A DNA stretch of 46,745 bases. It comes from a virus. The DNA lies in IMG/VR virus record IMGVR_UViG_3300009481_000001, positions 1 to 46,745 of that record. One strand, given 5' to 3'. Positions 17,744 to 46,745 of this stretch are shown here, in pieces (position 1 is the first letter of the stretch; each line of letters opens with the position of its first letter). The notes under the pieces were generated by a model, which worked only from the letters and a program-made list of their open reading frames with translations, made no database searches and was not told the DNA's origin. Position numbers and translations under genes: made by a program.

Positions 17744-17752
17744 GGCTACTAG

Positions 17753-17796: not shown

Positions 17797-17804
17797 TGGA
17801 GGGC

Positions 17805-23622: not shown

Positions 23623-23626
23623 TTCG

Positions 23627-31543: not shown

Positions 31544-31709
31544 AGTCCGCCTCAGGAACGTGAGCGTCCATCACTCGACCTGAGCCTAGGTGAACACGAG
31601 TCACGTCATCCTGAATTGATTCGAACCATTCGATCTTCATCTTGATCAGACAACATTCCTTTCCGCATGGGAATCGAGTGAATCTGATAATGTCGTATCT
31701 GTTCATCAC
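31437..31709 (-). CDS. hypothetical protein (90 aa), last gene of the leftward arm
   Basis: GTG/ATG start overlaps the upstream stop (GTGA). The 3-prime 107 nt overlap the 3-prime end of 26279..31543 on the opposite strand. Confidence 0.5.
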   Translation of the reverse strand: MMNRYDIIRFTRFPCGKECCLIKMKIEWFESIQDDVTRVHLGSGRVMDAHVPEADFIRLLVERPSKSEAYTRSRVSGSNRSEARDSERSE

Positions 31710-32119: not shown

Positions 32120-32537
32120 AGTTGATCTGGCCGTGCAACCCTGCTAGCTCTACTGTAGCGTCTCCGGCATCCGTCCGCAATGCCCAATTCAGAATCGGTT
32201 CGGAAACGGCCCACTGCGCCATGGTAGGTAGGGTTATATCTACCTCTGTGGGCTGCCCACCCCACCCCTTGTGATGGATCCGGACCCCGGGTAGCGACTC
32301 TTTCCATAGGCGATTAACGGTCGGCGCGAGCCGCATTAGGAAGTCGGGATGATTAGGGTCTCTTATGACCACAATCATAGCATGACGCTGAGTCTTGCCG
32401 TACCTCTCGAACTCAATCGGAGAGTACTTATACTTCCACCATGGGTAAAGGCTCTCCATGATGTACGATACTAGGTCTGGAAGTAGCATGTCACCGATGT
32501 CGGTCGATGGCATCGCACCTGGGATATAGGCTATCAA
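32073..32537 (-). CDS. hypothetical protein (154 aa)
   Basis: ORF track. TTG start overlaps the upstream stop as TTGA. An alternative ATG lies at 32513. Confidence 0.55.
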   Translation of the reverse strand: MIAYIPGAMPSTDIGDMLLPDLVSYIMESLYPWWKYKYSPIEFERYGKTQRHAMIVVIRDPNHPDFLMRLAPTVNRLWKESLPGVRIHHKGWGGQPTEVDITLPTMAQWAVSEPILNWALRTDAGDATVELAGLHGQINFAYQWSNHASTRTTI

Positions 32538-33286
32538 TCGAACGCCGCAGCTAGGGCTTCTTCTTCGGTCAACTCTACACGAGGCGCAGGCTCCGGCAAG
32601 TTGATATCGATCGGCTTAGCCTCTGCACGAGGATCAGAAAATGACATACCAGCCTTCTCGGTTAACCCGCGCTCGATGTCGGTCACTTCGTAATGCTTGT
32701 TATCGATCTCATTTAGGTTCTCTTCGCTCAGGTGCCCGCCGACACTTCCACGAATCTGGGTCCACCTCTCGGTGGAAATCTTCTTAAAGAGCTTGACCCT
32801 GATCTCCTCGGGGATCTTGCGGCTACCTAGGATAAGGGTCTCTGCGGTCGCGTACTGGAGCTTGCCACCTTTTTTTCTTCCCTTCACGAACCACCCGGTT
32901 AGTTCGTAGTAAGCGAACTGTTCAGGGGTGATTCCGGGCCATGGGGCCGACGGGCTAGAAGGGGGCTGGCTTGCCTCCTTAGGCGTCTCAGGCCTCAGGG
33001 GCGCCTTGCTTTGCCTGTCCCCTGTCGCTGCCTGAGGGGCTGTCTCCGGGGCTGCTAGGGCCCGATCCGGGGGGATTGTGACGTCATCCTCCCCAGGGGG
33101 GAGGAGATCGGCCCGGACTATGCCATCGGTGGTCGGAACCCACGAGTCATGCTCTAGATATAGACCCTGCAACACGTACTCAACGATCTCAGCCTCGTCG
33201 AATGTCTTTACTACCGCGCCGACAACCCGACTACCGTTGATAGTAAGCTCTACGAACGTTCCGTCGAATCGGTGGATCTTAATCAT
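32534..33286 (-). CDS. hypothetical two-domain protein with Pro-rich linker (250 aa)
   Basis: ORF track. Confidence 0.6.
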   Translation of the reverse strand: MIKIHRFDGTFVELTINGSRVVGAVVKTFDEAEIVEYVLQGLYLEHDSWVPTTDGIVRADLLPPGEDDVTIPPDRALAAPETAPQAATGDRQSKAPLRPETPKEASQPPSSPSAPWPGITPEQFAYYELTGWFVKGRKKGGKLQYATAETLILGSRKIPEEIRVKLFKKISTERWTQIRGSVGGHLSEENLNEIDNKHYEVTDIERGLTEKAGMSFSDPRAEAKPIDINLPEPAPRVELTEEEALAAAFD

Positions 33287-33722
33287 CAGTCTTCCCTATG
33301 ACCAGTGGTACCCCGGTCGTGATTGCTGTAGTTAGAACCCAGTCATCGCCAGAGACAAGGTCACCATCAGAGTCCCGAACAGCTAGTGCTATAGTTCCGT
33401 ATCTATTCTCGAAAATGAAAGCGTCGTCTTGCTCGGTTACAGGCTCCCACCTATCCACCGCTGTCAGGATGGTTGCCTTAAATGCGTCATCTTTTAGCTT
33501 TCCGACAGATTCTATGTATGTATAAGCAATATGAGTAGCTACGCTGAAGTTGGATGGCGTTGGACCCAATCGAATCCACCCACGCTTGTAGTCGAACCCG
33601 TCCGTAAACACACCGATTTCATATGAGTTGTACTTATATCCCAGATAAAACCCTCCATGCCTCGGCTCATGCGTAGGCAGATGGTCTACAGCGGGAAGCT
33701 CCGTCCCGCACAAACGGACCAT
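33279..33722 (-). CDS. hypothetical protein (147 aa)
   Basis: ORF track. Confidence 0.6.
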   Translation of the reverse strand: MVRLCGTELPAVDHLPTHEPRHGGFYLGYKYNSYEIGVFTDGFDYKRGWIRLGPTPSNFSVATHIAYTYIESVGKLKDDAFKATILTAVDRWEPVTEQDDAFIFENRYGTIALAVRDSDGDLVSGDDWVLTTAITTGVPLVIGKTDD

Positions 33723-33736
33723 AGTCCGCCATAGGA

Positions 33737-34126
33737 TTATTCGGAGCGGTAGAATCTCAAGTCCTCCAGCCTGAACTCGATCCAGTTCGCTCGCCTACGA
33801 TCGCCAGTATGTCCCATGTCTTCGACGTTGACCCAATACCAGATCCCCTTACTGAGAATAACACCACCAGCAGCAGCACCCGCAGCATGTAGTTGCCGGA
33901 GTCGTTTGATCTGGATCAGGCTGAACCAGTTTGGGTCCAACTTGACTTCGATCCCGTAAAGAATCCCATCCACCACGCCCATTAGATCGGGCAGACCGAC
34001 CACCCCATACTCGGAGCCAACGTTCTTCCACCAGTACGACCCAGGGTACGTCCTCTGTAGGTCGTGCCTCAGAAGTTTAGTGTGTACTGACTCGCCCTGC
34101 TTCCTGGCAGGCCTGTTGAACTTCAT
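33737..34126 (-). CDS. VRR-NUC / PD-(D/E)XK nuclease (129 aa)
   Basis: GLPDLMGVVDGILYGIEVKLDPNWFSLIQ fits the PD...(D/E)xK...Q core of VRR-NUC nucleases. ATGA coupling to the upstream gene. Confidence 0.65.
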   Translation of the reverse strand: MKFNRPARKQGESVHTKLLRHDLQRTYPGSYWWKNVGSEYGVVGLPDLMGVVDGILYGIEVKLDPNWFSLIQIKRLRQLHAAGAAAGGVILSKGIWYWVNVEDMGHTGDRRRANWIEFRLEDLRFYRSE

Positions 34127-34620
34127 GAAACTTTCCGCCGTCTGTCTATGTCAGCCTGAAGCTCAGCGATGCACATCTGCATCTGCATAACGAGCGGCCC
34201 CGGAGCATTCTGCACGAACTGAGCATGGACGTCTTCACGGAAGAGGGCGGTGAATGCCTTGCGCCCTGAGCGCGGGTCCATGGCCTTCGGGTTGAGGCAG
34301 TGCGCCGCGATCATGATCCACCATACAGCACTCTTCATGTTATCGGAGTCGAGACCGATGGGAGTAGTACGAAGGATCTCTCGGTCGTTGCGCGAGAGGT
34401 ACATCATCGCGGTCCCGATCGAATGAAACGCTAGCCCGATCGGACCGAGCTTGCTAGCCATCATGTTGATGATCTCAGTCCCATCCGAGAGGATGTACCG
34501 AGGGTTTGGCTTCGTGTATCCGAACTTGCTTTCATTCTTCATCGTCACTCCATGCCATGTATAGGCCATCGCCATGGTCCTTAGACCGGTGCCTACCGAT
34601 ATGCCAGCGGAATCTATCAC
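34123..34620 (-). CDS. hypothetical protein (165 aa)
   Basis: ORF track. GTG start. The 12-bp palindrome GTGCAATTGCAC (34653-34664) lies just upstream. Confidence 0.55.
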   Translation of the reverse strand: MIDSAGISVGTGLRTMAMAYTWHGVTMKNESKFGYTKPNPRYILSDGTEIINMMASKLGPIGLAFHSIGTAMMYLSRNDREILRTTPIGLDSDNMKSAVWWIMIAAHCLNPKAMDPRSGRKAFTALFREDVHAQFVQNAPGPLVMQMQMCIAELQADIDRRRKVS

Positions 34621-34673
34621 ACCAGAACATTCCTAGGTCCCGATGATACAAGGTGCAATTGCACTTCAGGAAA

Positions 34674-34865
34674 TCAAACACTAGTAGCTCCATCAATTGC
34701 GTGCTCGAACAGTTTCTTTACATTACACAGCCAGTCCTTTTCAATACGTACCATGTAGTCGATTTCGACCTTACAGTCTACGTTATCTATAGAGAACTCA
34801 ACAACTAAGACGAATTGCCCCGATGGAACATACGCGGTATGCGTATCTATTCCATAGGAAAGCAA
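34674..34865 (-). CDS. hypothetical protein (63 aa)
   Basis: ORF track. TTG start with AAGGGA close upstream. Confidence 0.4.
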   Translation of the reverse strand: MLSYGIDTHTAYVPSGQFVLVVEFSIDNVDCKVEIDYMVRIEKDWLCNVKKLFEHAIDGATSV

Positions 34866-34888
34866 GATCCCTTAGACGATGTCATCCA

Positions 34889-36142
34889 TCATGAGAACAG
34901 GCCCTTCTGCTTCGGGGTAACAAGCGGGAAGTTCGAGATCACTGACTCCTGTCGTGCTCCCCGAGACTCAGCGTGGCCGAGCGTGTAGTCCACGTCTACG
35001 TAATTGACTTGGAAGTCTCCCTTTGCAGGCCCGAACCATTTCATGTACTTATCGCCAGCCTTATTGCTGTTGGTCATGAGGACCTTGTTGCCAGCCTCGT
35101 TGATCTTGACCATGGCCTCAGCGAGTTCCATGTGCCACTCGTCTGGGAACTTCAGGGCGTAGCCTTCTGTTTCTAGGTATGGAGGATCAAGGTAGGTGAA
35201 CACATCACCAGCGGCCACACGCTTGAGCGAGTATCGGGTGATGATGTCTCGGAAGTCGGCGCACTCGATCCAGACCCCTCGAAGCCTACGTGCTGCCCGC
35301 TTGAAGGTCTCAGGGCTCGCCTTGCCCGGGGAGGAGTGAGCGGACCCGGCGTATGGCTTCCAGACCAACCCATTGTAGCTATTCAAGGAGAGGTAGCCGA
35401 ACATGACGGCCCACTCAAACTCGTTGCGGTGAGCATACTCCCTCTGGAACCACCGCTGATAAATACGCGAGGATGGCAGTGCGTTGATTGCGTCAGCAAG
35501 CTCGTTAGGCCACTGTGAGCACACGCGCCAGAAGTTGATCAGCGCCTCGTACTTGTCGTTTACGACCTCGACCTTAGAGGGCTTCTTACCGAATAGAGGC
35601 TTCATCGATCCGCCGAACACTTCGACGTAGGTGTGGTGCTCAGGAAACCGAGCAAGGAGCCACTCAAGCATCTTCGACTTGCCACCCATCCAGCGGATCG
35701 GGGAAGCGCACGGAGGCTCGGGATCTTTTTCCTGAGGAAGAACCTCCCACCCGAGACCCGCCAGTGTCCAGTGCGGAAGGTCTGAGATACCATCTGGAAT
35801 AACGATCCCCCACTTCGACTCCCCGATCGTGACATCGACCGAGAAGGACTCAGCGGGTGTACCGCGTGGCGCGATGATGGCAGTCGGATCCGTGGGTCGA
35901 AACCCAGGCTCACGACGGTCCTTCATGCTGTCGATCTTCTCGTCAAGATCAGGCATTTTCGACTTGACGGTCCGCGAGCTATAAAGACGAGGACTGCCAG
36001 CACGGCACGAGAGCTTGTGTGGTACGAGACCATCGATACTGGTCTGTAGCAGGAAGGACGGGACCCCCATAGCAGAGGAGATCGCTTCCGCGGAGTACTC
36101 GTTACCGTCGGAAACGTATGCTACGATTTCAGCTTCAAGCAT
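34889..36142 (-). CDS. DNA N6-adenine methyltransferase (Dam/D12 class) with an N-terminal extension of about 140 aa
   Basis: IRWMGGKSKML, VEVFGGSMKPLF (AdoMet motif) and YLDPPYLETEGY (DPPY motif). The N-terminal 55 aa look winged-helix-like. Confidence 0.8.
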   Translation of the reverse strand: MLEAEIVAYVSDGNEYSAEAISSAMGVPSFLLQTSIDGLVPHKLSCRAGSPRLYSSRTVKSKMPDLDEKIDSMKDRREPGFRPTDPTAIIAPRGTPAESFSVDVTIGESKWGIVIPDGISDLPHWTLAGLGWEVLPQEKDPEPPCASPIRWMGGKSKMLEWLLARFPEHHTYVEVFGGSMKPLFGKKPSKVEVVNDKYEALINFWRVCSQWPNELADAINALPSSRIYQRWFQREYAHRNEFEWAVMFGYLSLNSYNGLVWKPYAGSAHSSPGKASPETFKRAARRLRGVWIECADFRDIITRYSLKRVAAGDVFTYLDPPYLETEGYALKFPDEWHMELAEAMVKINEAGNKVLMTNSNKAGDKYMKWFGPAKGDFQVNYVDVDYTLGHAESRGARQESVISNFPLVTPKQKGLFS

Positions 36143-36362
36143 TTAATAGATCCATATGGTTCATCAACGACTCGACCATTACTGCCTTACGGAAAAGAAT
36201 ATAGTCAAGAAAGACCGATTGACCTAGGATCCTGAGCCTGGGAGGGTGACATCGAATATGACATCCTTGCTGTGGTATAAGCTCAGACCTCATGTATCCA
36301 ATGTTCTTAGCAGCCGTATAGCTGTTGAACTTCTTAGACCCGTCTCGGAGCATGCACTTCAT
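36135..36362 (-). CDS. hypothetical protein (75 aa)
   Basis: ATG at 36362 (MKCMLRDG...) overlaps the stop of a small upstream ORF (ATGA). The ORF-track GTG at 36386 is the alternative start. Confidence 0.5.
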   Translation of the reverse strand: MKCMLRDGSKKFNSYTAAKNIGYMRSELIPQQGCHIRCHPPRLRILGQSVFLDYILFRKAVMVESLMNHMDLLNA

Positions 36363-36478
36363 TGTATAGGATCTCCGTCGTACCACTGAAAGCCCTTACT
36401 CGCAAATATGTTTTCAACACCTGCATACCTAGCGGGAAGAAATACTGGCGTTTTCACTTTAGAACTTCTCCACCACAT
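36359..36478 (-). CDS. small ORF (39 aa)
   Basis: Not in the ORF track. Translation is MWWRSSKVKTPVFLPARYAGVENIFASKGFQWYDGDPIQ. The stop overlaps the downstream ATG (ATGA). Confidence 0.3.
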   Translation of the reverse strand: MWWRSSKVKTPVFLPARYAGVENIFASKGFQWYDGDPIQ

Positions 36479-36534
36479 TGGCTTATATGGTACTTTGCCA
36501 CTTTCGGCATTGATCCATAATGATTCTTTGAAAT

Positions 36535-36753
36535 TCATCGAATCCAGATCCGCATGTTCGGGTGGCAGTCAACCTGAAGCGGGCCTTCTGGAGTTTCCTT
36601 CATGCACACGACATGAGGTCGCTCCAGGCACATTCTAAGCTCGGAATCACGCTTGCTATCGATTTGGTTGTGGTTACTGATCGAAAAGACCATCCACAGG
36701 ATAGCGATCAGCGTAATCAGGATCATCCAGTCGGTCTTAGTCATCGTCGCCAC
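36535..36753 (-). CDS. small membrane protein (72 aa)
   Basis: ORF track. N-terminal transmembrane segment WMILITLIAILWMVFSI. Confidence 0.55.
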   Translation of the reverse strand: MATMTKTDWMILITLIAILWMVFSISNHNQIDSKRDSELRMCLERPHVVCMKETPEGPLQVDCHPNMRIWIR

Positions 36754-36929
36754 ACTCCATCCTTCGATCCTGGTCCATACGCAACGCGCCTGCCGTCGAT
36801 CGCTGCTATATAAGCAATATTATTACACTTGATTACACCTAGCAAACTATTCTTATGCGCCGCCCTAAGGGTATGTCGGCTGGTGCATATGTAGCACTTT
36901 ATTCTACTACCATCCCTGAGAACCCTCAT
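36741..36929 (-). CDS. hypothetical protein (62 aa)
   Basis: ORF track. ATG overlaps the primase-helicase stop (ATGA). Confidence 0.45.
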   Translation of the reverse strand: MRVLRDGSRIKCYICTSRHTLRAAHKNSLLGVIKCNNIAYIAAIDGRRVAYGPGSKDGVWRR

Positions 36930-39900
36930 GCCGCCTCCTCAGGTTGGTACGTAGCTTCAAGCCATCGTCGAAATTGGTCAGTCTTGATAAAAGATCCTCG
37001 CCGCTCGATAAGGCAATCAGAGTACAGCGTAAGTGTCGCCATCACCTCCTCAAACGAAGGCTTATTCTGCACGTCCTTCGTTACCTGCCATGCGGTAAGC
37101 AGATCGTTGCGACGGACTGAGCCGCGGTTAATGAGGATACGAGCGAAGGCTGGGCCGCCGAGCGCATGAAGCGCAATCTTGACATCGTCACTCTTAATGT
37201 TCCCGTGTCCGATCGCGCTGGCTATCTTCCACTCTGGAGTAGAGTACAGGTCCTTGATGTAGTTTTCAGCCACCTTTACGTGGTCCATGGTCACGAGAAC
37301 CTTATCATCCTTGCGAGAGAAGCTCAATGCAGCAAACGCTGATGCAAACCTTCCTACCTTCCACCGAGCCTCAGTAGGCTCTAGGGTTGGTAGATTCTTA
37401 AACATCTTAGCGAGTCTTTGACCAGCGTCTGCGGCTGCCTGTGAAACCTCAATGCTCAGATCAGGCTTCTGTGTCCATGCCCAACGAATGTGCTCCTGAG
37501 CGATCTCCTGTGTGTAAGTGATCGGCTCAGGAGTATGGTCGAAGTTGGGTGACTCAAGCTTATATACACCGATCACGGACTCGAAGCGAGCAAGGTCCGC
37601 AGGCTTCTTGATAAGCTCCCGGATGGCGTACAGGAGCGAGTCATACTGCGATAGTCGTCTACTCCCCTTCGGGTTGGTCGCCATGATCATCCGGAGTGCG
37701 GCAGAAGTTCGCCTAGTGCCGCCAGCGATCGATCGCTGCGCTACGCCAGAGGAGCGGATACCTGTGAGCTTACCGAAGATCCCCGTCTCGATCAGTTCAT
37801 CAATCTCGTCAAGGAACGCGAGCCCGCCATTCTGCATAGGCAGTGATCCCCACGCGAAGACCTTACCCGCTGAGCCATAGTCACTCTTACCTCCGACCAG
37901 TCCAACATACGACGCTCCCTCAGCATCGATCATTGAGCCTGCGCCGAAGTGCTTGATCATCAGACTAGCAGCAGTGGTCTTGCCCTGACGTGAATCTCCC
38001 ACAACTAGAAGCTCGGGTGAAATCTTTTGATTGTCTCCCCCGAACATCTTGAATCTGATTGGCATAAAGAACAGGAGCAGGTACGCGAGCAGCATTGTCC
38101 GCTGGTCGTAGATCCTAGTGACGCCAAACTCCATATCTCTAAGGATACCTGAGACTGCTGCCTCTGTCCCGTTTTCACTATTCTTTTCGAGAAAGGAAAT
38201 TGTGGAGGCCGACATGGTAGCTGAGTGGATTGATCGCTTAGCTGGTCTGATACGTGTAGCGATCATGGTAGCTTGCGAATTCATCGGGTCCGCACAAATC
38301 TTACCGCTTACCGTAACAGCTTCATTGTCTCTAGGGATGTCGTCTCCCAGGTAATGAACCGGGAAGATGAAGTGTCGTGAATCAGACCAGTCGATACCCT
38401 TTGCCTCGCTATCCGGGGCCAGCAGTACAGGCATAACACGAGACCGCGTGTACTCAAACTCAGGGTGCGGGCAGCGTGGAGGGATACCCAACAGGTCGTC
38501 TCTCAGGCGCTTCTCCTGCCTGGACGGCGCGTTTCCTGAAAGTGTGATGATCTCATGTGGCGGCACCTTTACCGCTCGCTCGAATCCAAAGCTAGGAAGC
38601 TGGCACTTAGAGCAGTTTGGGATCTTGTTATCTACCCCAAAGTCACACTTAACTGTACACCCACTAATGACAAACTTTGCACTACTGGTCCCGCCCGCTA
38701 CTACAGCATGCATCTGAACTGGTCGTTCGGCAAGCTCTACATCATGCACTTGACTGAATGAAATATTGGTAATCTCCTGGTCGCCAGGGGAGGTGACATG
38801 TCCGTCACGCGGCAGTGACCACCAGTCAGAGAAGTCGAAGTTACGACTCCTGTAGTAGTCATTTACGTCCCCGAACGGAAGTCGTACGATTCGCACTTCC
38901 CCTGCGACTCCGTACAGTGCGTCTGCAAGCTTTACGGCTCCCTTTCGACCGGCTTGGTCCGCATCCAGCGCGATGTCCACGCTGAGACCTTTGAACTTGC
39001 TGAGCCACCCACGCACGAATGATGATTCGCCACCAGTAAATGTAACAGCGGAGATACCGTTGGAGTTGAGTAGAATCGCTTTCAGTTCCCCGCCAGTTAT
39101 GCAGATCCATGGGTTAGGCGCTCCAACATCTTCAATTGCCGTTACTGCGAAATTCTCGACCGACTGGCTTGGGTATAGATTGTTCTTATTGTGCTTCGAT
39201 ATGCCAGTGACCTTGGACCCGCGCTTTCCTACCTTGCGGCAGGTACCAACGTCCCATACCTCAGTGCGGCCGAATCCACCGACCTTGAATACGCTACCAG
39301 CTTCGTTCCTCCACGCACAGTTTGCGCGCATTATATCGTGCTTACGTACGTTAACGACTCGACCCGCCACTGAGACGGGAATCATCAGACGTTGCTCCTG
39401 GCTGCTCCATCCGAGCTTGAATGTGCGGACTGCTTCAAGCGTAACTCCGTAGTGCTCACGAAGCTTTGTAAGTACAGAAGAGTTACCCTCTAGTCGTGAC
39501 TGCCAGTATGGAATTCGATCTAGGTACTTCTGAGGAATCTGCTCGTACCGAGACTCAATGCGCTCCTCTGCCCGCTTCTTTCTATCAGACTTTTCATTGC
39601 GAAATACTGGAGGAGGTAGGTGGAAAGATCCGCCGAGCCACTCTGCGATTTGCCGTAACGCTTCTCGGAAATCTACGGAGCGTAAGTGCTGCCATGCTCC
39701 GATAAGGTCCGCAGTCTGACCACATCCCTTGCATTCGTACCCGCCGTGCTTCGCACCGATACAGAGGCTTGCGTGTTCGTCATCGTGGTGCCAGCATCGG
39801 TAAAGCCAGGTATCAGAGACGCGCTTACCCTCCTGTCCAGATAGTTCATCGTAGAATACATTAACGCCACGGTCCAGAACGCGCGCCTTGATATCCTTCG

Positions 39901-39994
39901 CGTCAAGCCGTGGAGCTTGCGGTCTGGTAGGCGCAGCGAGTGAAGCCGCCGTTGTAGTCTTCCCGAGAAGACGTTGGACAAAATCCAAATCCAC
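36926..39994 (-). CDS. DnaG-type primase (CHC2 zinc finger plus TOPRIM) fused to an MCM-like AAA+ helicase
   Basis: Zinc finger: CWHHDDEHASLCI...YECKGCGQTADLIGAW. TOPRIM: ITGGELKAILL ... DIALDADQAGRKGA. Walker A: LLVVGDSRQGKTT. Walker B: GGLAFLDEIDEL. The segments GVAQRSIAGGTRRTSAALRMIMATNP and ADLARFESVIGV parallel the MCM AMEQQTISIAKAG...AAANP and LLSRFDL blocks. Confidence 0.75.
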   Translation of the reverse strand: MDLDFVQRLLGKTTTAASLAAPTRPQAPRLDAKDIKARVLDRGVNVFYDELSGQEGKRVSDTWLYRCWHHDDEHASLCIGAKHGGYECKGCGQTADLIGAWQHLRSVDFREALRQIAEWLGGSFHLPPPVFRNEKSDRKKRAEERIESRYEQIPQKYLDRIPYWQSRLEGNSSVLTKLREHYGVTLEAVRTFKLGWSSQEQRLMIPVSVAGRVVNVRKHDIMRANCAWRNEAGSVFKVGGFGRTEVWDVGTCRKVGKRGSKVTGISKHNKNNLYPSQSVENFAVTAIEDVGAPNPWICITGGELKAILLNSNGISAVTFTGGESSFVRGWLSKFKGLSVDIALDADQAGRKGAVKLADALYGVAGEVRIVRLPFGDVNDYYRSRNFDFSDWWSLPRDGHVTSPGDQEITNISFSQVHDVELAERPVQMHAVVAGGTSSAKFVISGCTVKCDFGVDNKIPNCSKCQLPSFGFERAVKVPPHEIITLSGNAPSRQEKRLRDDLLGIPPRCPHPEFEYTRSRVMPVLLAPDSEAKGIDWSDSRHFIFPVHYLGDDIPRDNEAVTVSGKICADPMNSQATMIATRIRPAKRSIHSATMSASTISFLEKNSENGTEAAVSGILRDMEFGVTRIYDQRTMLLAYLLLFFMPIRFKMFGGDNQKISPELLVVGDSRQGKTTAASLMIKHFGAGSMIDAEGASYVGLVGGKSDYGSAGKVFAWGSLPMQNGGLAFLDEIDELIETGIFGKLTGIRSSGVAQRSIAGGTRRTSAALRMIMATNPKGSRRLSQYDSLLYAIRELIKKPADLARFESVIGVYKLESPNFDHTPEPITYTQEIAQEHIRWAWTQKPDLSIEVSQAAADAGQRLAKMFKNLPTLEPTEARWKVGRFASAFAALSFSRKDDKVLVTMDHVKVAENYIKDLYSTPEWKIASAIGHGNIKSDDVKIALHALGGPAFARILINRGSVRRNDLLTAWQVTKDVQNKPSFEEVMATLTLYSDCLIERRGSFIKTDQFRRWLEATYQPEEAA

Positions 39995-40332
39995 TAGTCA
40001 GTGAACTCCACGTCGGACATGCCTTCGTACACGGGGATCTTGTGAAACATAGCGTAGTCGATCTCGTTACGCATGCCATTACTGATACGACCCGGAAGGA
40101 AGCGAAGCTCGTCACACTTAAGGAGCAACTTCTGATCGATCTGGATCCCAATACGCCGTTCATCAGGGTCGCCCTCGTCCAACCAGCCACGAAGGACGCA
40201 GTAGAACGGGAAGTCTACCGTGTAGCAGTCGAACCAATCGCGGACAGTTTCCGAGAACTTGAGCGCCTCGACGCAGTTTGCTTCCGGGTTACCCGAGATC
40301 GGAGCGGCGATGTACACGCGCTTTTTCTTCAT
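39994..40332 (-). CDS. nucleoside 2-deoxyribosyltransferase-like (DUF4406-type) protein (112 aa)
   Basis: VYIAAPISGNPE ... SNGMRNEIDYAMFHKIPVY fits the Rossmann-like pattern of this family (from memory). Confidence 0.5.
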   Translation of the reverse strand: MKKKRVYIAAPISGNPEANCVEALKFSETVRDWFDCYTVDFPFYCVLRGWLDEGDPDERRIGIQIDQKLLLKCDELRFLPGRISNGMRNEIDYAMFHKIPVYEGMSDVEFTD

Positions 40333-40592
40333 AGCGTGTAACCTCTCTTTCGATCTTCATCGTTATCAGGTTCGAAGAAGAACGTGTTGTAGTTGTCGTT
40401 TATGATATATTTGCCCGCCCAGGCGTCCTTCCACGACATCCACTCTCCAGTCTTTTCGATGAACCACTCGTAACGAGACGGATAGTCTGTATCCATCCAG
40501 CCATCGGTGTATATAATGACCTCGGAAACCGAGGATGTGTTGAACGTACTAGACTCGCATTCCTCACCTGTATTAATATGTCTACATTTCAT
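40329..40592 (-). CDS. hypothetical protein (87 aa)
   Basis: ATG at 40592 is preceded by a strong AGGAGG SD 4 nt upstream. The ORF-track TTG at 40628 has no SD. Confidence 0.6.
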   Translation of the reverse strand: MKCRHINTGEECESSTFNTSSVSEVIIYTDGWMDTDYPSRYEWFIEKTGEWMSWKDAWAGKYIINDNYNTFFFEPDNDEDRKRGYTL

Positions 40593-40766
40593 GATACCTC
40601 CTGGGCCTTGCACCCATTCGTAGGTCAATTTGGTTTATGTATCCTGGGGTCACCCATACCCCGCTCACTAGTCAGCAGACTTTTACTACCACCTCGCATT
40701 GGCTTATTCTGTCCCTGTTACTACTCGTTCCTTCGCCGAGCGATCATGTATTCATCCAGCATGTAT

Positions 40767-41714
40767 TCATACATGACGAATCACACCTTCCGCCTCGTGC
40801 CCCGCTTCTCCCAGGACCTTGATGGAGTCGTGGTCGCGGAGGTTCTTCGCCTCGGTCAGCAGCCACGCCTGCTCCTGGGCGGCGATGGGGGCCACCTTGA
40901 ACTGGAAGATGCCGACGTTGTTGCCGCCCTTGTTCGCGGTCGTCCACGAAATGTGCCAGAGGCACGCCTCGATCGGCCAGTTCCCGCTCGGGTGAATCTT
41001 CTTGATATCAGCGAGAGCCTTCTCCCACTCGGGGAACGACGACGTGGTCAGCCTAAGGATGACGGGACCCGGGTGGGTGTAGCCGTTCGCATCAGCGGGC
41101 TTGCCGTACCACGTGGTACCGACCGGAAGCTCGTACGTCTCGTACCACCACCGGTGGTCGACCGGGTCCTTGTCGGAGATCACGACGTACTCGCCGTTAT
41201 CGTTGGCGACCTTTGCCACGCCAGCGCAGGAGATTGCGATGCTGATGGTCTGGTTGCACGCCTTACCAGCGCGCGGCTGCCCGTCCTGGCCGATGGCGGT
41301 CCCCCACTGGAACTTCGAGCACTTCGCGCACTTGCGCGTCTGAACCCCGTTTCCATCCTTGATATCGCCGATCCCGATCACGCCGTCGTTCGACTTACAC
41401 GAAGGCTTGTCAGCCTGAGCGTTCTCGAACCACGCGTTCGGCATGGCGACGTTGACGACCGTGGCGATGATGGACCCGTTGGACGGGAGGCGGGCGATGA
41501 CGTCCTTCTTGCGCTTGACCTTGACGTCGCCGTCACGCGTCGCGCTGAGGATGATCATGGGGAACTGAGACCCCGTGGACAGTTCGGCAGCGGCCGGAAG
41601 CTGGAACATGTCCGCGAACTGGGACAGGAAGTCGGGCATCGCCGGAAGGTCGGTTCGACCGGTCGCTACCGGAAGGTTGTCGTTGGCGCCTGGAGGAGGG
41701 GGGAGGTCGGGCAT
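40767..41714 (-). CDS. hypothetical Cys-containing protein (315 aa), possible ssDNA-binding or annealing partner of the adjacent exonuclease
   Basis: ORF track. High-GC island. Abuts the exonuclease gene at 41714. The function is inferred from context only. Confidence 0.3.
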   Translation of the reverse strand: MPDLPPPPGANDNLPVATGRTDLPAMPDFLSQFADMFQLPAAAELSTGSQFPMIILSATRDGDVKVKRKKDVIARLPSNGSIIATVVNVAMPNAWFENAQADKPSCKSNDGVIGIGDIKDGNGVQTRKCAKCSKFQWGTAIGQDGQPRAGKACNQTISIAISCAGVAKVANDNGEYVVISDKDPVDHRWWYETYELPVGTTWYGKPADANGYTHPGPVILRLTTSSFPEWEKALADIKKIHPSGNWPIEACLWHISWTTANKGGNNVGIFQFKVAPIAAQEQAWLLTEAKNLRDHDSIKVLGEAGHEAEGVIRHV

Positions 41715-42679
41715 TACATGTATTCCTTTACGAAGTCCGGTATCTCCATGACCGGCTCTGGGGTTGAGTCAGTAGGCCAGCAGGAAGTCCTGAACCTACA
41801 GGTGTCACAATTGTTCTTACCTTGCCCTTCGTAACGCTTTACGGACGGGTAAGGTCCACTACGCGCGTTGTCGTACCACGCAGCAAGGCGGTCGGCGTTA
41901 CGAATGAGGTGGTTATGAAACGGTGTCGTGAACAGGATCTCGCCACGAAAGTCGCCCTTCGCGTTCTTGATCGATCCGTCCTTGTGGTACGAGTTCCTAC
42001 TAAAAGGAAAAAGGTGACCATACTGGATCTGCCCATACCACTCGGGCTTGATCTCAACGTACTTACCTGCGTATCGTTCACGCAGTATGCTCGTCAGCGT
42101 GTGGCGCTCGCGGTTGGGTACGTCTAGGAACCCGTAGCACCCTTGGTCTAGAATGGCTCCGTACCACCCGCACTGGTTCTCTTCGTGCATATCTGGCACG
42201 ACGGACTGAGCGGATACTGATTTACCGAACAGGCCGAAGGCCTTACCGTCTAGGATGCCGAGCTTGCCGTCGAGCATCGCTAGGAAATCCATTCGACCGC
42301 CACGCTCAACGTCGTGCGTCGATCGAATCTCTACTTCGGATGCTACGATCGTAATGCCGGTGGTAGGGAACCACGTACGGAAGTGGAATAGGACCGTTCC
42401 AATGCGGTCCACGAGGATGCCAGCATCCTTCGCGCTGAGCCAGACCTTACCAGTCCTTCGCTGCTCCTCTGTTACGGCGGCTGCTAGAGCATCTTTAGCG
42501 ATCGAGTCTTCGTCGCGAGAGTCACCCTTGAATTGTGACTCCATCGCGAGCGCGATTGCTACTCCACCGACCGTGTAGATGTTTCCGTCCGAAGGCTCGC
42601 TCACATTGCGTCGAGCGTACTCCGGGCAGCCCATGTAAGCAATGATCTCGCTTAGGCGAATCGGCGGTTGTTCGTTCAT
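41714..42679 (-). CDS. Cas4/RecB-like PD-(D/E)XK exonuclease with Fe-S cysteine cluster
   Basis: N-terminal Cys (YMGCPEY), the core RMDFL...LGILDGK, and a C-terminal C-x2-C-x5-C (CDTCRFRTSC). Confidence 0.7.
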   Translation of the reverse strand: MNEQPPIRLSEIIAYMGCPEYARRNVSEPSDGNIYTVGGVAIALAMESQFKGDSRDEDSIAKDALAAAVTEEQRRTGKVWLSAKDAGILVDRIGTVLFHFRTWFPTTGITIVASEVEIRSTHDVERGGRMDFLAMLDGKLGILDGKAFGLFGKSVSAQSVVPDMHEENQCGWYGAILDQGCYGFLDVPNRERHTLTSILRERYAGKYVEIKPEWYGQIQYGHLFPFSRNSYHKDGSIKNAKGDFRGEILFTTPFHNHLIRNADRLAAWYDNARSGPYPSVKRYEGQGKNNCDTCRFRTSCWPTDSTPEPVMEIPDFVKEYM

Positions 42680-42731
42680 GCTGCTCTCGCGCCGCCTCCC
42701 TGGTCATGAGGTCGCGTTAGGTGGTAAGAGG

Positions 42732-42760
42732 AGTGTAAACCCCCGTCATCCCCCTGTCAA
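42732..42760 (-). promoter_or_regulatory. sigma70-like promoter TTGACA-N17-TACACT
   Basis: The -35 is at 42760..42755 and the -10 at 42737..42732 on the reverse strand, in the gap between 42782..43204 and the exonuclease gene. Confidence 0.6.
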
Positions 42761-42781
42761 CCCTTTTCTAAGTGGTTGATA

Positions 42782-43204
42782 TCACTCAGGTTTTCCGCCT
42801 CGCCTCAGGCTCTCTACCTCCCGCCGGAGGCTATCGACCATACCCTCAAGCTCTGCTACCCTCCGTGATAGGGACCTTTCGGACTCCCTGGTGCTCTTAA
42901 GGTCCTTCATTAGTTGTGCGTTCCGAGCCTCGGCATTGTCTACTAGTTCCGAGAAGATATCAGAGACCTTTTCCGCAACACCGAGGGCGGCAGTGGACCG
43001 CTTAGCGTCGGCGGCGGCATGCTTAAGGTCTGCTTCAGCCTCTTCGCTCGGGGATGGGATTAGGCGAGCGAGTAGCGCAGGACCGATCTTCTGACCTCCT
43101 AGTACTGTAGCCACGCCCGTAAGTAGGGCGATAGCTAGGTCTAGAATCTCGTTGCCAGTCGTCGGCATCCGCTCGTCTTCTACTCTTATCGCTAGTGCGG
43201 GCAC
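42782..43204 (-). CDS. membrane-anchored coiled-coil protein (140 aa)
   Basis: GTG start with GGGGAG SD. Transmembrane-like ILDLAIALLTGVATVLGG, followed by heptad-like sequence. Confidence 0.55.
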   Translation of the reverse strand: MPALAIRVEDERMPTTGNEILDLAIALLTGVATVLGGQKIGPALLARLIPSPSEEAEADLKHAAADAKRSTAALGVAEKVSDIFSELVDNAEARNAQLMKDLKSTRESERSLSRRVAELEGMVDSLRREVESLRRGGKPE

Positions 43205-43232
43205 GATCTCCCCGTGTCCCCCACCCGGTTAG

Positions 43233-43841
43233 TTAGCTCGCCAGTACGACTGCGTCAAGCGTAGCCGCTTCGTATACGTATGCAGACCACCACCCCACGA
43301 TACCCGCGCTCGCGCCACCTGCGATGACCGAGATCGAGTACCACGAACCGTTATCAAACTTTGCAGACAGAGAGTTACCACCATCAGCAGCGACACGAGT
43401 GTCCCAGTACTTCGGAGTGCCGCCGTTCCGAACATCGAGTGCAGTCCAGAACGTAGTTGCCGCGGCGAGCGGGTCTGGACTGATGCCGACCTCGACAGTA
43501 CACGCGGCTGCCGGGTTGGTCGTCACGTTGATCGTGTTGTAGTCCATCCACAGGTTCTTGCCTGTGAGGTTCCTTACGTTGTACATGCCGCCGGGCGTAA
43601 CGTCAGACGCGACGAGCGCTCCACCGATCATCCACCCCTGTAGAGGGGACGTATACTCAGCAGTCACAGACCTCGGGACCATGTCAAGCTGATGCTTGCC
43701 GCCTACGGTCTTAACTACGATACGGGAGCCCTCCGCAGCAGAGGAGTGGAGAGCTTGATCGCCGATAGACCTGGACTCCTGCATCCCGGTCTCGGAGTCG
43801 AGCCACCAGTAGGGTCCGAGCTTGGTGTCTTTACTTGCCAT
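43233..43841 (-). CDS. hypothetical beta-rich protein (202 aa)
   Basis: ORF track. 11-nt overlap with the upstream gene. Confidence 0.6.
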   Translation of the reverse strand: MASKDTKLGPYWWLDSETGMQESRSIGDQALHSSAAEGSRIVVKTVGGKHQLDMVPRSVTAEYTSPLQGWMIGGALVASDVTPGGMYNVRNLTGKNLWMDYNTINVTTNPAAACTVEVGISPDPLAAATTFWTALDVRNGGTPKYWDTRVAADGGNSLSAKFDNGSWYSISVIAGGASAGIVGWWSAYVYEAATLDAVVLAS

Positions 43842-44175
43842 TTCGAGCCTTCTCCGCGTAGGCTACGCACTCCTTCGCGTACTTGACCCACTTGCGGTCC
43901 ACGAGGACCCACTTCGACTCGGACGCTCGGATGCGCCAGACGACAGCATCGACCACGACCGCGATCACGATGTCGCTGATCTCCTCAGCGATAGGGGGAA
44001 GCTCGAAAATATTGTCGATGATACCACGGAGCGTCACGCGGAACGTGGCATTCGACATGCTCGGATGCTCGAGCGCGAGCTTGTGCCCTTCACGAAGGGC
44101 GATATCCCAGGTGGAGCGGAACTTCTTCGCGCGGACTCGGCTCTTAGTGCGGACTCTGGAACCACGACGGGTCAT
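43831..44175 (-). CDS. hypothetical protein with basic N-terminus (114 aa)
   Basis: ORF track. ATGA coupling. Confidence 0.6.
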   Translation of the reverse strand: MTRRGSRVRTKSRVRAKKFRSTWDIALREGHKLALEHPSMSNATFRVTLRGIIDNIFELPPIAEEISDIVIAVVVDAVVWRIRASESKWVLVDRKWVKYAKECVAYAEKARNGK

Positions 44176-44984
44176 TGCGGTACGCCCTTCCAGGCTTGTA
44201 GGCTCTTGAAGATGTGAACGAACTCAACATCACCCTGACACTCAGAGAACATTGATACATGAAGGGTTGAGTAATCGATCTTGTGGACCGTAGACCCAGG
44301 CGAGCGGGTCTGTAGCGTGCCATAGTCCTTCGTTGTGTCGAACTGTGTAGCCTTCGTACCGACCGCGAGTAGTTCGTTCGACGTTTCGTATCCGAACCGA
44401 GCACCCTCTAGTCCGATGACGATCTGAAGCAACCGAACGCCAGCCTGGATCACATCGGACCCGGTCTGTACATTGGCTAGCACGCGACCGAATCGGACCT
44501 TCTCGTTCGGTCCGATGTAGATTGCTCTAGTACAGAAGCCGTTACCTGAGTCGTCACCTACGTACAGGCCCCAGGCTTCATAGTTCGTAGCAGGGATCGC
44601 TCCGTCAGCAGCTACGGTGAACGCTAGCAGATCGTCCGCAGTCGGGGCACGACCTAGAAGGTCGGCGACGTACACCTTTGTCTCGACCGCGTCCGCGCTC
44701 CCGAAGAACTTGAGGCTGCCCGTTGTACTGGTCTGTGCGATACCCTTCGATCCGTCAGGGCCATGCAGACTGTTGAGCCCGTCTTGAATGACATGGTCGA
44801 TCTCACCACCGACGGAGCCAGAGTCAGCAGTGACAGCGTACGGGTCGCCAAGCTCGGTCCAGGCCGCTGGTCCCAGGCCATCGTACGCGAACGTACATAT
44901 GTCTTCCCACTGTGCAGCCTTCGATGCTGCGGCAGTAGGTTCGAAAGTGTCGTGACTTCCGTCCGTGTTCCAGCTAGTCGGCAT
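44172..44984 (-). CDS. hypothetical beta-rich protein (270 aa)
   Basis: ATG at 44984 overlaps the upstream stop by 11 nt. The ORF-track start at 45053 would overlap by 80 nt. Confidence 0.55.
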   Translation of the reverse strand: MPTSWNTDGSHDTFEPTAAASKAAQWEDICTFAYDGLGPAAWTELGDPYAVTADSGSVGGEIDHVIQDGLNSLHGPDGSKGIAQTSTTGSLKFFGSADAVETKVYVADLLGRAPTADDLLAFTVAADGAIPATNYEAWGLYVGDDSGNGFCTRAIYIGPNEKVRFGRVLANVQTGSDVIQAGVRLLQIVIGLEGARFGYETSNELLAVGTKATQFDTTKDYGTLQTRSPGSTVHKIDYSTLHVSMFSECQGDVEFVHIFKSLQAWKGVPQ

Positions 44985-45351
44985 CGATAAACAACTTCGC
45001 CGAGCCTGCGACTGCGGCGTCGCCAGTTCGCATGAAGAAGTAGATGCTTTCACCCTCCTTGACGGTCATCGGAATGGGGGTGCCGATCACGTTGCGCTCT
45101 GGAGCTGGGTCGGCAGCGGCGGCGAGAGCCGCCACTCGGTCGACCTCAGAGGCAGCACGGATAGCGTCAGTGAACGCGGCTGGAGCGATTCCTGAAGCGG
45201 CTACATGAACGCTGACGTCCACGGCTGCAACGTTGTTCAGGTGAACAAGCTGTCGCTTCAGGTTGTAGGGGCCGGGCTGCTCTACGTGCTCATGGAGGAA
45301 CGGAGTCGTCGTCCTGTAGTCGCCGGAGGGGATATCGATGTCGATCCGCAT
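44974..45351 (-). CDS. hypothetical protein (125 aa), first gene of a promoter-defined operon
   Basis: ORF track. GGAG SD 7 nt upstream of the ATG. Confidence 0.6.
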   Translation of the reverse strand: MRIDIDIPSGDYRTTTPFLHEHVEQPGPYNLKRQLVHLNNVAAVDVSVHVAASGIAPAAFTDAIRAASEVDRVAALAAAADPAPERNVIGTPIPMTVKEGESIYFFMRTGDAAVAGSAKLFIDAD

Positions 45352-45374
45352 CTACGCGCTCCAGTGGGGTGTTC

Positions 45375-45408
45375 GGGTCCGCCGCTGCGAGCAACCAGCG
45401 GCGGCGGA
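45375..45408 (-). promoter_or_regulatory. 13-bp perfect GC-rich hairpin (GGGTCCGCCGCTG / CAGCGGCGGACCC, 8-nt loop) in the predicted 5-prime UTR
   Basis: Read directly. It lies between the 45491 promoter and the ATG at 45351, with no U-tract. Confidence 0.6.
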
Positions 45409-45462
45409 CCCTGCACCCGATCACCGACCAGAGTGACCCGGGGCTCGCGCCCCACGTACCCC

Positions 45463-45491
45463 AGGGTAAACCCCTCGCGCGCGCGTGTCAA
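45463..45491 (-). promoter_or_regulatory. sigma70-like promoter TTGACA-N17-TACCCT
   Basis: The -35 is at 45491..45486 and the -10 at 45468..45463 on the reverse strand. It uses the same hexamers as the terS promoter and starts 23 nt after the stop of 45514..45789. Confidence 0.6.
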
Positions 45492-45513
45492 GCCCCTTCG
45501 TAAGCTAGCGTAA

Positions 45514-45789
45514 TCACTCGGCTTTCTGGCATTCCTTGTACCAGAGGAAGCGGGAGCCGCATTCTGCGACCAGAAGATGACTCTTTGTTTTGAGAGTCCA
45601 GGCTTCATGTTCGCCGCAAGGGCACTGAGCCATACCCCATCCCGTGACAGCTTCGATGTGACCACCGAGGTCTCTTGGCAGTCTGATTACGTCTGGAGCG
45701 GAATAGTCCATGGCGATCGCCATCCCCTCCACGTCTTTAGACGGGGCAACAGGGTCGCCTGCTTTCTTGATGAAGTATTCTATGGTCAT
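45514..45789 (-). CDS. hypothetical protein (91 aa)
   Basis: ATG at 45789 overlaps the upstream stop (ATGA). The ORF-track GTG at 45795 is the alternative start. Confidence 0.55.
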   Translation of the reverse strand: MTIEYFIKKAGDPVAPSKDVEGMAIAMDYSAPDVIRLPRDLGGHIEAVTGWGMAQCPCGEHEAWTLKTKSHLLVAECGSRFLWYKECQKAE

Positions 45790-46199
45790 CCACACTCTCC
45801 TGACCAGTAGCAGTCACAACACGTGATACACGTACCATTCCGTTGCGTGTTCCACGAGAAGCAGTTGGCACACTGCTCACCTGATGCGAGCGTCCCGAGC
45901 GAGATAACTGGCGCTGGTCGCTCCACGACCTTGCGTGTGTGCTTATTCTCCTGCTGTACCGAGACCACTGGCCGACCGTTGCAGAAGAAGGCTACCTCGA
46001 CCGTAGGGGTGAGCGCGTCACACTTCGTACATGCTCGTGTTCGGAACACATACGAAGCGTTCGGCATTTCACCGGCTACGATCTTGGCGAGCCTCGACGA
46101 CACGTCAGCATCGTGATCCCTTGTCTCCTTTACGTAGTGCAGGTGACCATCGCACTCGGGAATGGAGCAGGGAATGAAGGTCCTAGCCGACACAGTCAA
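45786..46199 (-). CDS. Cys-rich zinc-ribbon protein (137 aa)
   Basis: CSIPECDG...CTKCD and C-terminal CANC...CITCCDC. The TTG start overlaps the stop of the Gly-X ORF as TTGA. GTG at 46193 is an alternative start. Confidence 0.6.
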   Translation of the reverse strand: MTVSARTFIPCSIPECDGHLHYVKETRDHDADVSSRLAKIVAGEMPNASYVFRTRACTKCDALTPTVEVAFFCNGRPVVSVQQENKHTRKVVERPAPVISLGTLASGEQCANCFSWNTQRNGTCITCCDCYWSGECG

Positions 46200-46414
46200 A
46201 ATCCGTAGCCGGAGCCGTCGCCTGAGCCGTCGCCCGAGCCGTCGCCGAAGCCGAGGCCTGAGCCGTCGCCTGAGCCGGAGCCGTCGCCTGAGCCGAAGCC
46301 GAGGCCTGAGCCGTTGCCGGAGCCGGAGCCTGAGCCTGAGCCTGAGCCTGAGCCGAGGCCGTCGCCGGAGCCGAAGCCGGAGCCTGAGCCGTCGCCGGAG
46401 CCGTCGCCGATCAA
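46196..46414 (-). CDS. (Gly-X)n dipeptide-repeat protein (72 aa)
   Basis: ORF track. After MI, Gly occupies every second position for 70 residues, with X = S, D, N, L, F or Y. TTGA overlaps occur at both ends. Confidence 0.5.
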
Positions 46415-46437
46415 CGGAACGTATCCAGCGCGGAAGG
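46398..46437. repeat. 40-nt perfect direct repeat of 65..104
   Basis: Read directly. It covers the stop of the 93-aa gene or its remnant and the TTG start of the Gly-X ORF. Confidence 0.9.
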
Positions 46438-46548
46438 CAGGTTCCCGATGATCACGTAGCTGTCCATTACTATCTCTCCGTTGTTGTTAGGTTCTAGCCG
46501 AAACTCGGGAATGGAGCAGGGAATGAAGGTCCTAGCCGACACAGTCAA
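46411..46548 (-). CDS. chimeric 45-codon ORF (possibly a pseudogene or coupling leader)
   Basis: It joins the first 15 codons of the 137-aa gene ([15 protein letters not shown]), a translated copy of the 5-prime UTR of 78..359, and an internally deleted 18-codon remnant [18 protein letters not shown]. It remains in frame from TTG 46548 to TGA 46411. Confidence 0.35.
46446..46508. repeat. 63-nt perfect direct repeat of 338..400
   Basis: Read directly. It covers the first 7 codons and the 5-prime UTR of the 93-aa gene. Confidence 0.9.
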
Positions 46549-46550
46549 AA
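46503..46550. repeat. 48-nt perfect direct repeat of 46154..46201
   Basis: Read directly. It covers the start of the 137-aa gene and overlaps the 63-nt repeat by ACTCGG. Confidence 0.9.
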
Positions 46551-46745
46551 GCCGGAGCCTGAGCCGAAGCCGGAGCCTGAGCCTGAGCCGAAGCCGAGGC
46601 CTGAGCCGTTGCCGGAGCCGGAGCCTGAGCCTGAGCCGAGGCCGAGGCCGTCGCCGAAGCCGAAGCCGGAGCCGAAGCCGTCGCCGTAGCCGTTGCCTGA
46701 GCCTGAGCCGTTGCCGAAGCCGTCGCCTGAGCCTGAGCCTGAGCC
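46545..46745 (-). CDS. (Gly-X)n dipeptide-repeat ORF, C-terminal 66 codons (partial at window edge)
   Basis: The reverse strand reads [66 protein letters not shown]-stop. The stop overlaps TTG 46548 as TTGA. Confidence 0.45.

Follow-up and report, generated by a model that had tools for sequence, protein, structure and literature searches.

The best known examples of phage genes duplicated in tandem come from bacteriophage T4. The dmd-tifA amplifications that T4 acquires under toxIN selection are bounded by microhomologies of 6-10 base pairs (bp), and one copy of the microhomology is left between the repeats (Srikant, Guegler & Laub 2022, PMC9391042); the classic T4 rII duplications (Anderson & Roth 1977, as cited in PMC9391042) are an earlier case. 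Here we analyze a locus of this kind in the window, by which we mean the whole stretch of 46,745 nucleotides (nt) of the IMG/VR virus record IMGVR_UViG_3300009481_000001. The locus is a minus-strand gene cassette at the two ends of the window, and it comprises a gene for a DUF6948-like protein of 93 amino acids (aa), two open reading frames (ORFs) with glycine at every second codon (Gly-X ORFs A and B), a chimeric ORF of 45 aa between them and an intact gene for a cysteine-rich protein of 137 aa. The whole is, in our judgment, probably best explained by a recent tandem duplication at a microhomology, which left a trimmed second copy and a chain of coupled ORFs.

The locus shares with the T4 amplifications the head-to-tail copies, the short flanking microhomologies, the presence of exactly one microhomology copy at the inter-repeat junction and the small accessory genes. 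In contrast to the dmd-tifA case, it was found in a natural uncultivated phage, there are only two copies, one of them is trimmed in frame, and the repeats have diverged. The duplication event belongs to a well-known class, and it is the cassette that constitutes the uncharacterized part.

The original prediction, which was made from the sequence alone, claimed that three perfect repeats tie the right end of the window to its left end, and all three proved to be exact. Repeat A (48 nt), repeat B (63 nt) and repeat C, which had been given as 40 nt (65-104 = 46398-46437) and can be extended by one position to 41 nt, each have a second copy, designated A', B' and C' (Table 1). The 40-mer occurs twice in the window, while 0.00 occurrences are expected from 100 dinucleotide-preserving shuffles. 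A fourth collinear exact block of 57 nt, which lies within both Gly-X arrays, was revealed by an all-against-all k-mer comparison of the window ends. In both units the blocks follow each other head-to-tail in the same order, A (48), array core (57), C (41) and B (63), which is the arrangement of a tandem duplication, and there is not a single substitution in the 209 nt that they share. On the coding (minus) strand the locus therefore reads: CHAP peptidase gene, B, 93-aa gene, C, Gly-X A, A', B', an 18-codon remnant of the 93-aa gene, C', Gly-X B, A and the 137-aa gene; this set and order of ORFs, with TTGA at all boundaries, is as predicted. The spacing of B and B', obtained by a repeat search on a continuous contig from ENA, is 616 nt and defines the long unit, and the spacing of A and A', 349 nt, defines the short one. 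A tandem unit of about 620-640 nt had been proposed; the tandem unit stands, but its size does not, as the long unit measures 616 nt once a 21-nt overlap of the window ends is dropped.

The hexamer ACTCGG is found at both parental sites, which form the outer edges of B and A, and a single ACTCGG occupies the novel junction, where it is common to A' and B', whose overlap consists of exactly these 6 nt. Such a pattern points to a tandem duplication in which two microhomologies of 6 bp underwent unequal exchange or slippage. We are highly confident that the tandem duplication is real and, judging from the letters at the junction, we find it very likely that it arose by microhomology. The segment joined to the beginning of the 137-aa gene had been described as the 5' untranslated region of the 93-aa gene. 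It is indeed the leader of this gene, but it also takes in the end of the CHAP gene, whose four final codons and stop (PSFG*) are located inside repeat B.

One would argue that the structure is an artefact of assembly or library preparation, in which two haplotypes (one with the full 93-aa gene and array A, the other with the deleted gene and array B) or chimeric reads were strung in tandem. Low-complexity arrays do break or mis-join the contigs of relatives (a chimera and several contig ends are discussed below), and one read set may underlie all three assemblies compared here. However, the assemblies themselves argue against this explanation. A MEGAHIT contig from ENA with k=141 (ERZ27249630:k141_1538930, 46,865 nt, referred to as L001), which was found by an exact-protein look-up, crosses the end-to-start join of the window and the entire cassette unbroken. 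The homology at the A'|B' junction is 6 nt and all repeats are at most 63 nt long, which is shorter than 141, and as a de Bruijn assembler never joins sequences on 6 nt, the k=141 path through the locus implies that 141-mers across the junction were present in the reads. The MEGAHIT circle was also closed without a competing branch. The Logan contig SRR5211068_236461 (k=31, 45,813 nt) spans window positions 371..46183, and each of its ends reaches k-1 = 30 nt, and no further, into a repeat (B at 400..371, A at 46183..46154), with terminal 30-mers that occur twice in the window and terminal 31-mers that occur once. Since a compacted de Bruijn graph stops where a k-1-mer has two neighbours, repeats A and B each had two contexts in the Logan reads, and a single-copy genome would give no break at these borders. 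The window and the k=141 contig are thus the same in structure, the k=31 branch points are compatible with them, and no single assembler can be blamed for the duplication. Two haplotypes alone would additionally be unable to create the A-to-B junction. An artefact is therefore very improbable.

The same contigs define the genome map. The window ends share 21 nt (1-21 = 46725-46745) of array sequence inside Gly-X ORF A, and the true circular join lacks these 21 nt, which gives a map of 46,724 bp; an end overlap of 15 nt is also possible due to the 6-nt period. When the window is circularized minus the 21 nt, all bases of the ENA contig are equal to it except at position 42866, and the untrimmed join gives a mismatch. 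The first 141 nt of the ENA contig are identical to its last 141 nt and correspond to window positions 17874-18014, where the window is continuous, and thus each of the two assemblies bridges the ends of the other. The map is either a circle of 46,724 bp or its counterpart in terminally redundant or concatemeric form. That the repeated ends mark a genome terminus or origin iterons was considered and rejected, because the window was cut at an arbitrary point, 18 kilobases from the cut of the ENA contig. Position 42866, which is T in the window and A in the ENA contig, is far from the duplication locus and represents the only difference in the regions compared with the ENA MEGAHIT and Logan contigs; a Logan fragment over this position is also unlike the window, which could reflect a polymorphism or a consensus difference between assemblies.

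The lack of substitutions in the shared blocks suggests that the duplication is evolutionarily recent. The Gly-X arrays behave differently from these blocks. Both ORFs are strictly (Gly-X)n, where X is S, D, N, F, L or Y, and their DNA is (GGC-NNC)n, for which Tandem Repeats Finder reports period 6. GGC accounts for 76 of the 77 glycine codons in the arrays vs 33% in 15 long ORFs of the same genome, and thus the arrays appear to be homogenized at the nucleotide level, as slippage or unequal exchange would give. Serine in the arrays is encoded almost solely by TCA or TCC. A unit-level alignment of array A with array B contains 17 identical units, 17 gaps and 13 substitutions, so that the arrays have diverged far more than their flanks. 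This divergence, together with the well-known mosaicism of phages through short homologies, would favor a second Gly-X unit imported by recombination with a co-infecting relative that carried another Gly-X allele. However, the junction links the genome's own 137-aa N-terminus to its own CHAP 3' end with the microhomology at both sites, no base of blocks A, B and C departs from the resident copies (100% identity), and the 137-aa gene is an orphan that was found in no other genome. An import could at most have replaced the array sequence after the duplication, and as an origin of the second unit it has only a slight probability, in our estimate a shade below that of the artefact. We infer that turnover rather than exchange with another genome made the difference between A and B.

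The arrays have parallels in known repeats. Like the collagen-like Gly-X-Y repeats of phage tail-fibre genes, they are glycine-periodic, low-complexity coding repeats which vary in length and serve as recombination substrates; unlike them, they have a period of two residues (6 nt) and not three, and a collagen-like repeat was rejected for this reason. The Gly-X ORFs also differ from tail-fibre repeats by being stand-alone, small and acidic (16-136 aa in complete examples) and by residing in an early, replication-side operon, and they are not domains of structural proteins. The GAGAGS and GAGAGY blocks of silk fibroin show strict Gly-X alternation. Fibroin-type (Gly-X)n resembles the arrays in this alternation, while the Gly-X ORFs are devoid of alanine and have S, D, Y, N, F, L, T or V as X. 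A phase-variable contingency locus that operates by frameshifting was rejected as well, because the unit is 6 nt long and slippage alters the length in frame. The AlphaFold2 (AF2) single-sequence model of Gly-X B has a predicted local distance difference test score (pLDDT) of 41, which means that no structure was predicted and the model is uninformative. PHROG, Pfam and homology searches with Gly-X B were empty.

The 45-aa chimera consists of 15 codons of the 137-aa gene, 12 read-through codons and the 18-codon remnant of the 93-aa gene. Compared to the full gene, the remnant has suffered two deletions, one of 24 nt (AGDSGVYS) and one of 201 nt (67 codons), both in frame, and it retains the Shine-Dalgarno site, the ATG, the stop and the TTGA overlap. 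The predicted 349-nt decayed copy created at ACTCGG, with its chimeric ORF and its preserved start, stop, frame and TTGA overlaps, is borne out by the sequence and by the three assemblies, which differ in assembler and k. All four boundaries of the cassette have the TTGA stop/start overlap expected for translational coupling. The Shine-Dalgarno sequence GGAGAG, positioned 6-7 nt upstream, precedes only the ATG of the 93-aa gene and its duplicate in B', and the TTG starts of the other four ORFs (Gly-X A, the chimera, Gly-X B and the 137-aa gene) have no GGAGG-like motif in the 30 nt before them. Promoter-like or terminator-like sites were not found inside the cassette. Without a Shine-Dalgarno site of their own, the TTG starts of the Gly-X and 137-aa genes should depend on a ribosome that terminates upstream. 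The most economical reading would be a termination-reinitiation chain in which the remnant, or the chimera containing it, is the sole ribosome route to Gly-X B and then to the 137-aa gene, and it is fairly probable that the remnant acts as such a ribosome relay. The cassette follows NTGA termination-reinitiation in phage and bacterial operons in its four consecutive TTGA overlaps, in its weak TTG starts without Shine-Dalgarno and in a short upstream ORF that would deliver ribosomes. It differs from known coupled operons in that the relay ORF is a gene remnant or chimera made by duplication and that the coupling is deduced from sequence.

It could also be that the duplication is real but neutral, young and on its way to loss, with the in-frame remnant and the open chimera left by chance and Gly-X B devoid of function. 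The recent age of the event agrees with this explanation, and so does the chance of one in three that the net deletion is in frame. Neither Gly-X ORF is listed in the public gene calls for the ENA contig, the exact sequences of Gly-X B and the 45-aa chimera are absent from a collection of 15 billion proteins, and the DUF6948-like/Gly-X family is small and has no assigned function. On the other hand, the two separate deletions took almost exactly the redundant DUF6948 body and left the Shine-Dalgarno site, the ATG, the stop and the TTGA, Gly-X B and the 137-aa gene have no Shine-Dalgarno of their own, and multi-copy coupled Gly ORFs arose independently in two other loci (L011 and L020). Neutrality of the whole is thus unlikely, although we give it real weight. 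The original prediction read the preserved signals as selection for translation through to the second Gly-X ORF. The TTG starts without Shine-Dalgarno lend support to this claim and give frame retention more weight as evidence, but frame retention by itself is weak, and the same dependence on upstream translation means that selection could favor the downstream 137-aa gene rather than Gly-X B. That the second Gly-X gene has an adaptive value is a tentative suggestion, which we would sooner doubt than accept.

A sequence of events can be proposed for the favored explanation, the trimmed tandem duplication with a coupled ORF chain. Unequal recombination or replication slippage would have joined two ACTCGG hexamers, one in the last CHAP codons and the other in codons 14-16 of the 137-aa gene. 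The duplicated stretch would then comprise the leader with the Shine-Dalgarno site, the 93-aa gene, the coupled (Gly-X)n gene and the first 15 codons of the 137-aa gene, and one ACTCGG would stay at the new junction. The two in-frame deletions (24 and 201 nt) would subsequently have trimmed the second, redundant copy of the DUF6948-like gene, so that an 18-codon mini-ORF was left, and would have cut the homology between the copies from 616 nt to blocks of at most 63 nt. The Gly-X arrays, being (GGC-NNC)n coding minisatellites, would diverge by gain, loss and shuffling of units, while the unique flanks stay identical. The break-up of homology probably stabilizes the duplication against loss by homologous recombination. 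Ribosomes would load at the single good Shine-Dalgarno site with ATG, which is present in both copies, and would be handed on across the four TTGA overlaps from the 93-aa gene to Gly-X A, the chimeric or mini-ORF, Gly-X B and the 137-aa gene. The mini-ORF would in this way keep Gly-X B and the 137-aa gene translated, and the outcome would be two different Gly-X proteins instead of one.

Several observations weigh against this proposal. A close relative with the single-copy ancestor was not found by DNA and close protein comparison in GenBank phages, IMG/VR and JGI contigs: both window ends gave no DNA match to GenBank phages, an exact search for repeat A gave no hit in JGI metagenome contigs and IMG/VR, and no close IMG/VR relatives of the 137-aa and 93-aa proteins were detected. 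The strong divergence of the arrays next to 209 substitution-free nt demands either very high array turnover or exchange with another genome. The chance of retaining the frame is 1/3 for a net in-frame change and 1/9 for two deletions that are separately in frame, which makes frame retention statistically weak, and an open, in-phase 45-aa chimera has a probability of about 0.2 by chance. The coupling is read from the letters, and either Gly-X ORF may be neither translated nor useful. Additionally, a single read set probably underlies all three assemblies, so that assemblers rather than samples were tested and a library artefact stays outside that test, and assemblers do fail in such arrays of relatives, so that more reliance can be placed on the unique junctions than on the exact lengths of the arrays.

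The relatives of the cassette were drawn from IMG/VR, JGI/ENA metagenomes and one metagenome-assembled genome. Nearly all of the retrieved loci have a Gly-X ORF after the DUF6948-like gene on the same strand; such pairs are present in about 16 distant environmental phage loci, and most of these have one Gly ORF. The complete Gly-X ORFs in the relatives are 16-136 aa long and have D, S, Y, T, V and other residues as X. The stop of the DUF6948 gene and the Gly-X start overlap in NTGA in 13 of the 16 loci with sequence past the stop; NTGA alone is likely by chance; more informative is the phasing, as it is the glycine frame that this start opens in nearly all loci. The arrays of the relatives are likewise dominated by GGC, and so are arrays in unrelated loci. 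All four glycine codons occur in the arrays that have diverged further (L011, L016, L017, L020), and thus glycine itself appears to be conserved and not the DNA alone.

At least two tandem Gly ORFs were observed in three of the approximately 16 loci. L011 (3344-3950) contains two tandem coupled Gly ORFs with ATGA/GTGA overlaps, and L020 (340-1376) contains two full-length Gly ORFs, a coupled 16-aa mini-ORF and further Gly-rich sequence, which is one Gly ORF more than in L017 from the same metagenome (82-86% nucleotide identity). These loci indicate that copy-number gain of the Gly ORF is a trait of the family, and the window appears to present one such gain with its scars still legible. The claim of an actively recombining cassette has support at the family level, where the homogenized hexamers and the variable copy number and length of the Gly ORFs agree with it, but not at the locus itself: no heterogeneity was seen in the assemblies, as the ENA contig is equal to the window over the entire cassette and the Logan contig stops at its borders. 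Selection on the remnant and ongoing recombination are each plausible.

Gly-X arrays are systematic assembly break points, as six related contigs (L004, L009, L010, L014, L017 and L019) end at or in the array just past the DUF6948-like gene. The IMG/VR contig 3300009285_000383 (L008) agrees with L009 and L021 at every position (100% identity) over more than 700 nt, and from about position 830, inside the array, it runs on in unrelated AT-rich DNA; it is probably a chimeric assembly at a low-complexity repeat. In one lineage (L005-L007) the DUF6948-like domain continues into an unrelated basic extension at the C-terminus (155 aa for the whole protein), and the gene that follows encodes an HNH endonuclease and takes the place of the Gly-X ORF.

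The 93-aa protein matches Pfam DUF6948 (PF22253) with 24.4 bits (E=3.2e-5), which is below the gathering cut-off of 27, and 7 of 10 members of its subfamily match DUF6948 at E<=0.01. Its AF2 model is a small beta-barrel with pLDDT 92.8. The top four matches of a BFVD fold search are DUF6948 proteins of uncultured phages, with template modelling (TM) scores of 0.69-0.84 and E values down to 2.8e-6, which indicates a shared fold. The protein is thus weakly similar to DUF6948 in sequence and strongly similar in predicted fold (TM 0.84), and it belongs to a distinct 'ARHLRRY' subfamily. This subfamily is small, as a profile search of 1.84 billion representatives yielded 17 clusters at E<=1e-3. All 50 top matches of a PDB fold search are Sm/LSm domains, but they are weak (E 5e-3 to 0.09, TM about 0.5), and the likeness to Sm/LSm barrels is one of predicted fold. 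No DUF6948-like protein fused to a Gly-X tail was found in the 1.84 billion representatives, so there is no Rosetta-stone evidence for the pair, and nothing relevant was found in the literature on DUF6948 and on Sm-like or glycine-rich phage proteins.

The cassette sits in a minus-strand, replication-side gene block (Table 1). The genes of the window include a major head protein, a methyltransferase, a primase-helicase and an SNF2 helicase, there are few database matches overall, and no tRNAs were found in the window. The phage is very distant from described phages. Eight large ORFs of the structural block (10715-31543, plus strand), one of them of 1,777 aa, were compared with PHROG; only the major head protein gave a match and the other 7 of the 8 gave none. 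The CHAP gene is called as 163 aa (386..877) in public assemblies. Gly-X ORF A encodes 86 aa after trimming. The 137-aa protein had no homologue except itself among 5.8 billion proteins and no Pfam or PHROG match; the identical protein, at its called length of 135 aa, is also encoded on a JGI contig of 46,857 nt. It contains several CxxC-like pairs, and its C-terminus is CCDCYWSGECG. Plus-strand ORFs (46162-46497, 46314-46451, 46609-46689 and 41-166), including an RS-rich one of 111 aa and one with PE repeats, were rejected as genes, since they run opposite to the operon without a conserved start context and are by-products of the hexamer period. A precursor of a ribosomally synthesized and post-translationally modified peptide similar to microcin B17 was rejected as well, as a rough check of the annotated neighbours in the window found no genes for modification enzymes.

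Table 1. Features of the duplicated cassette and its flanks, in the order of the coding (minus) strand; coordinates are window positions.
Feature	Position	Strand	Description
CHAP/NlpC-P60 peptidase gene	386..1006	-	Pfam CHAP E=9e-10; PHROG tail lysozyme/endolysin
Parental ACTCGG site 1	395..400	.	in the 3' end of the CHAP gene
Repeat B	338..400	.	CHAP 3' end, Shine-Dalgarno GGAGAG, ATG and first 7 codons of the 93-aa gene
Intact 93-aa gene	78..359	-	DUF6948-like small beta-barrel (Pfam, AF2, fold matches)
Repeat C	65..105	.	last 8 codons of the 93-aa gene, TTGA overlap, first Gly-X codons
Gly-X ORF A, 5' part	1..81	-	TTG start 81..79; crosses the circular join (verified by L001)
Gly-X ORF A, 3' part	46545..46745	-	stop TGA 46547..46545; 46725-46745 drop out of the true circle
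Repeat A'	46503..46550	.	TTGA overlap and first 15 codons of the 137-aa gene
45-aa chimeric ORF	46411..46548	-	137-aa N-terminus, read-through of CHAP end and leader, remnant
Novel duplication junction	46503..46508	.	one ACTCGG, overlap of A' and B'
Repeat B'	46446..46508	.	second copy of Shine-Dalgarno and ATG
18-codon remnant of the 93-aa gene	46411..46467	-	proposed ribosome relay mini-ORF
Repeat C'	46398..46438	.	41 nt, exact copy of C
Gly-X ORF B, 72 aa	46196..46414	-	TTG start and stop each in a TTGA overlap (stop with the 137-aa gene)
57-nt core block	46286..46342	.	in array B, identical to 46581-46637 in array A
Repeat A	46154..46201	.	48 nt; parental ACTCGG site 2 at 46154-46159
Intact 137-aa gene	45786..46199	-	Cys-rich orphan; called as 135 aa from GTG at 46193

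It is conceivable, though we regard it as improbable, that the cassette of a DUF6948-like, Sm-fold-like protein and a coupled acidic (Gly-X)n protein is an undescribed phage accessory module, whose array length (from 16 to 136 aa or more) and ORF copy number (from 1 to at least 3) turn over fast under dosage or diversifying selection. If this were true, the module could act, for example, as a decoy, in counter-defence or as a scaffold partner of the barrel protein, in phages of environmental metagenomes, some of them from groundwater. The window would then have caught an amplification in the act, in which the direct repeats of 48, 41 and 63 nt would let homologous recombination yield three single-copy alleles, predicted as the 93-aa gene with A, the 93-aa gene with B and the remnant with B.

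The locus provides a clean natural example of a process best known from T4 laboratory evolution, in which a microhomology duplicates accessory genes, the redundant part is pruned and the expression signals are kept. It may also illustrate a way for the remnant of a gene to survive, namely by relaying ribosomes within a chain of coupled ORFs. A rare but conserved pair of a DUF6948-like gene and a (Gly-X)n gene is identified here, of which the Gly-X ORFs are skipped by standard gene calls (in the one contig checked) and the arrays often break assemblies. These findings should be useful for annotators of environmental phage genomes and for searches for fast-evolving phage accessory loci, and the DUF6948-like/(Gly-X)n module with its rapid turnover is the part most worth pursuing.

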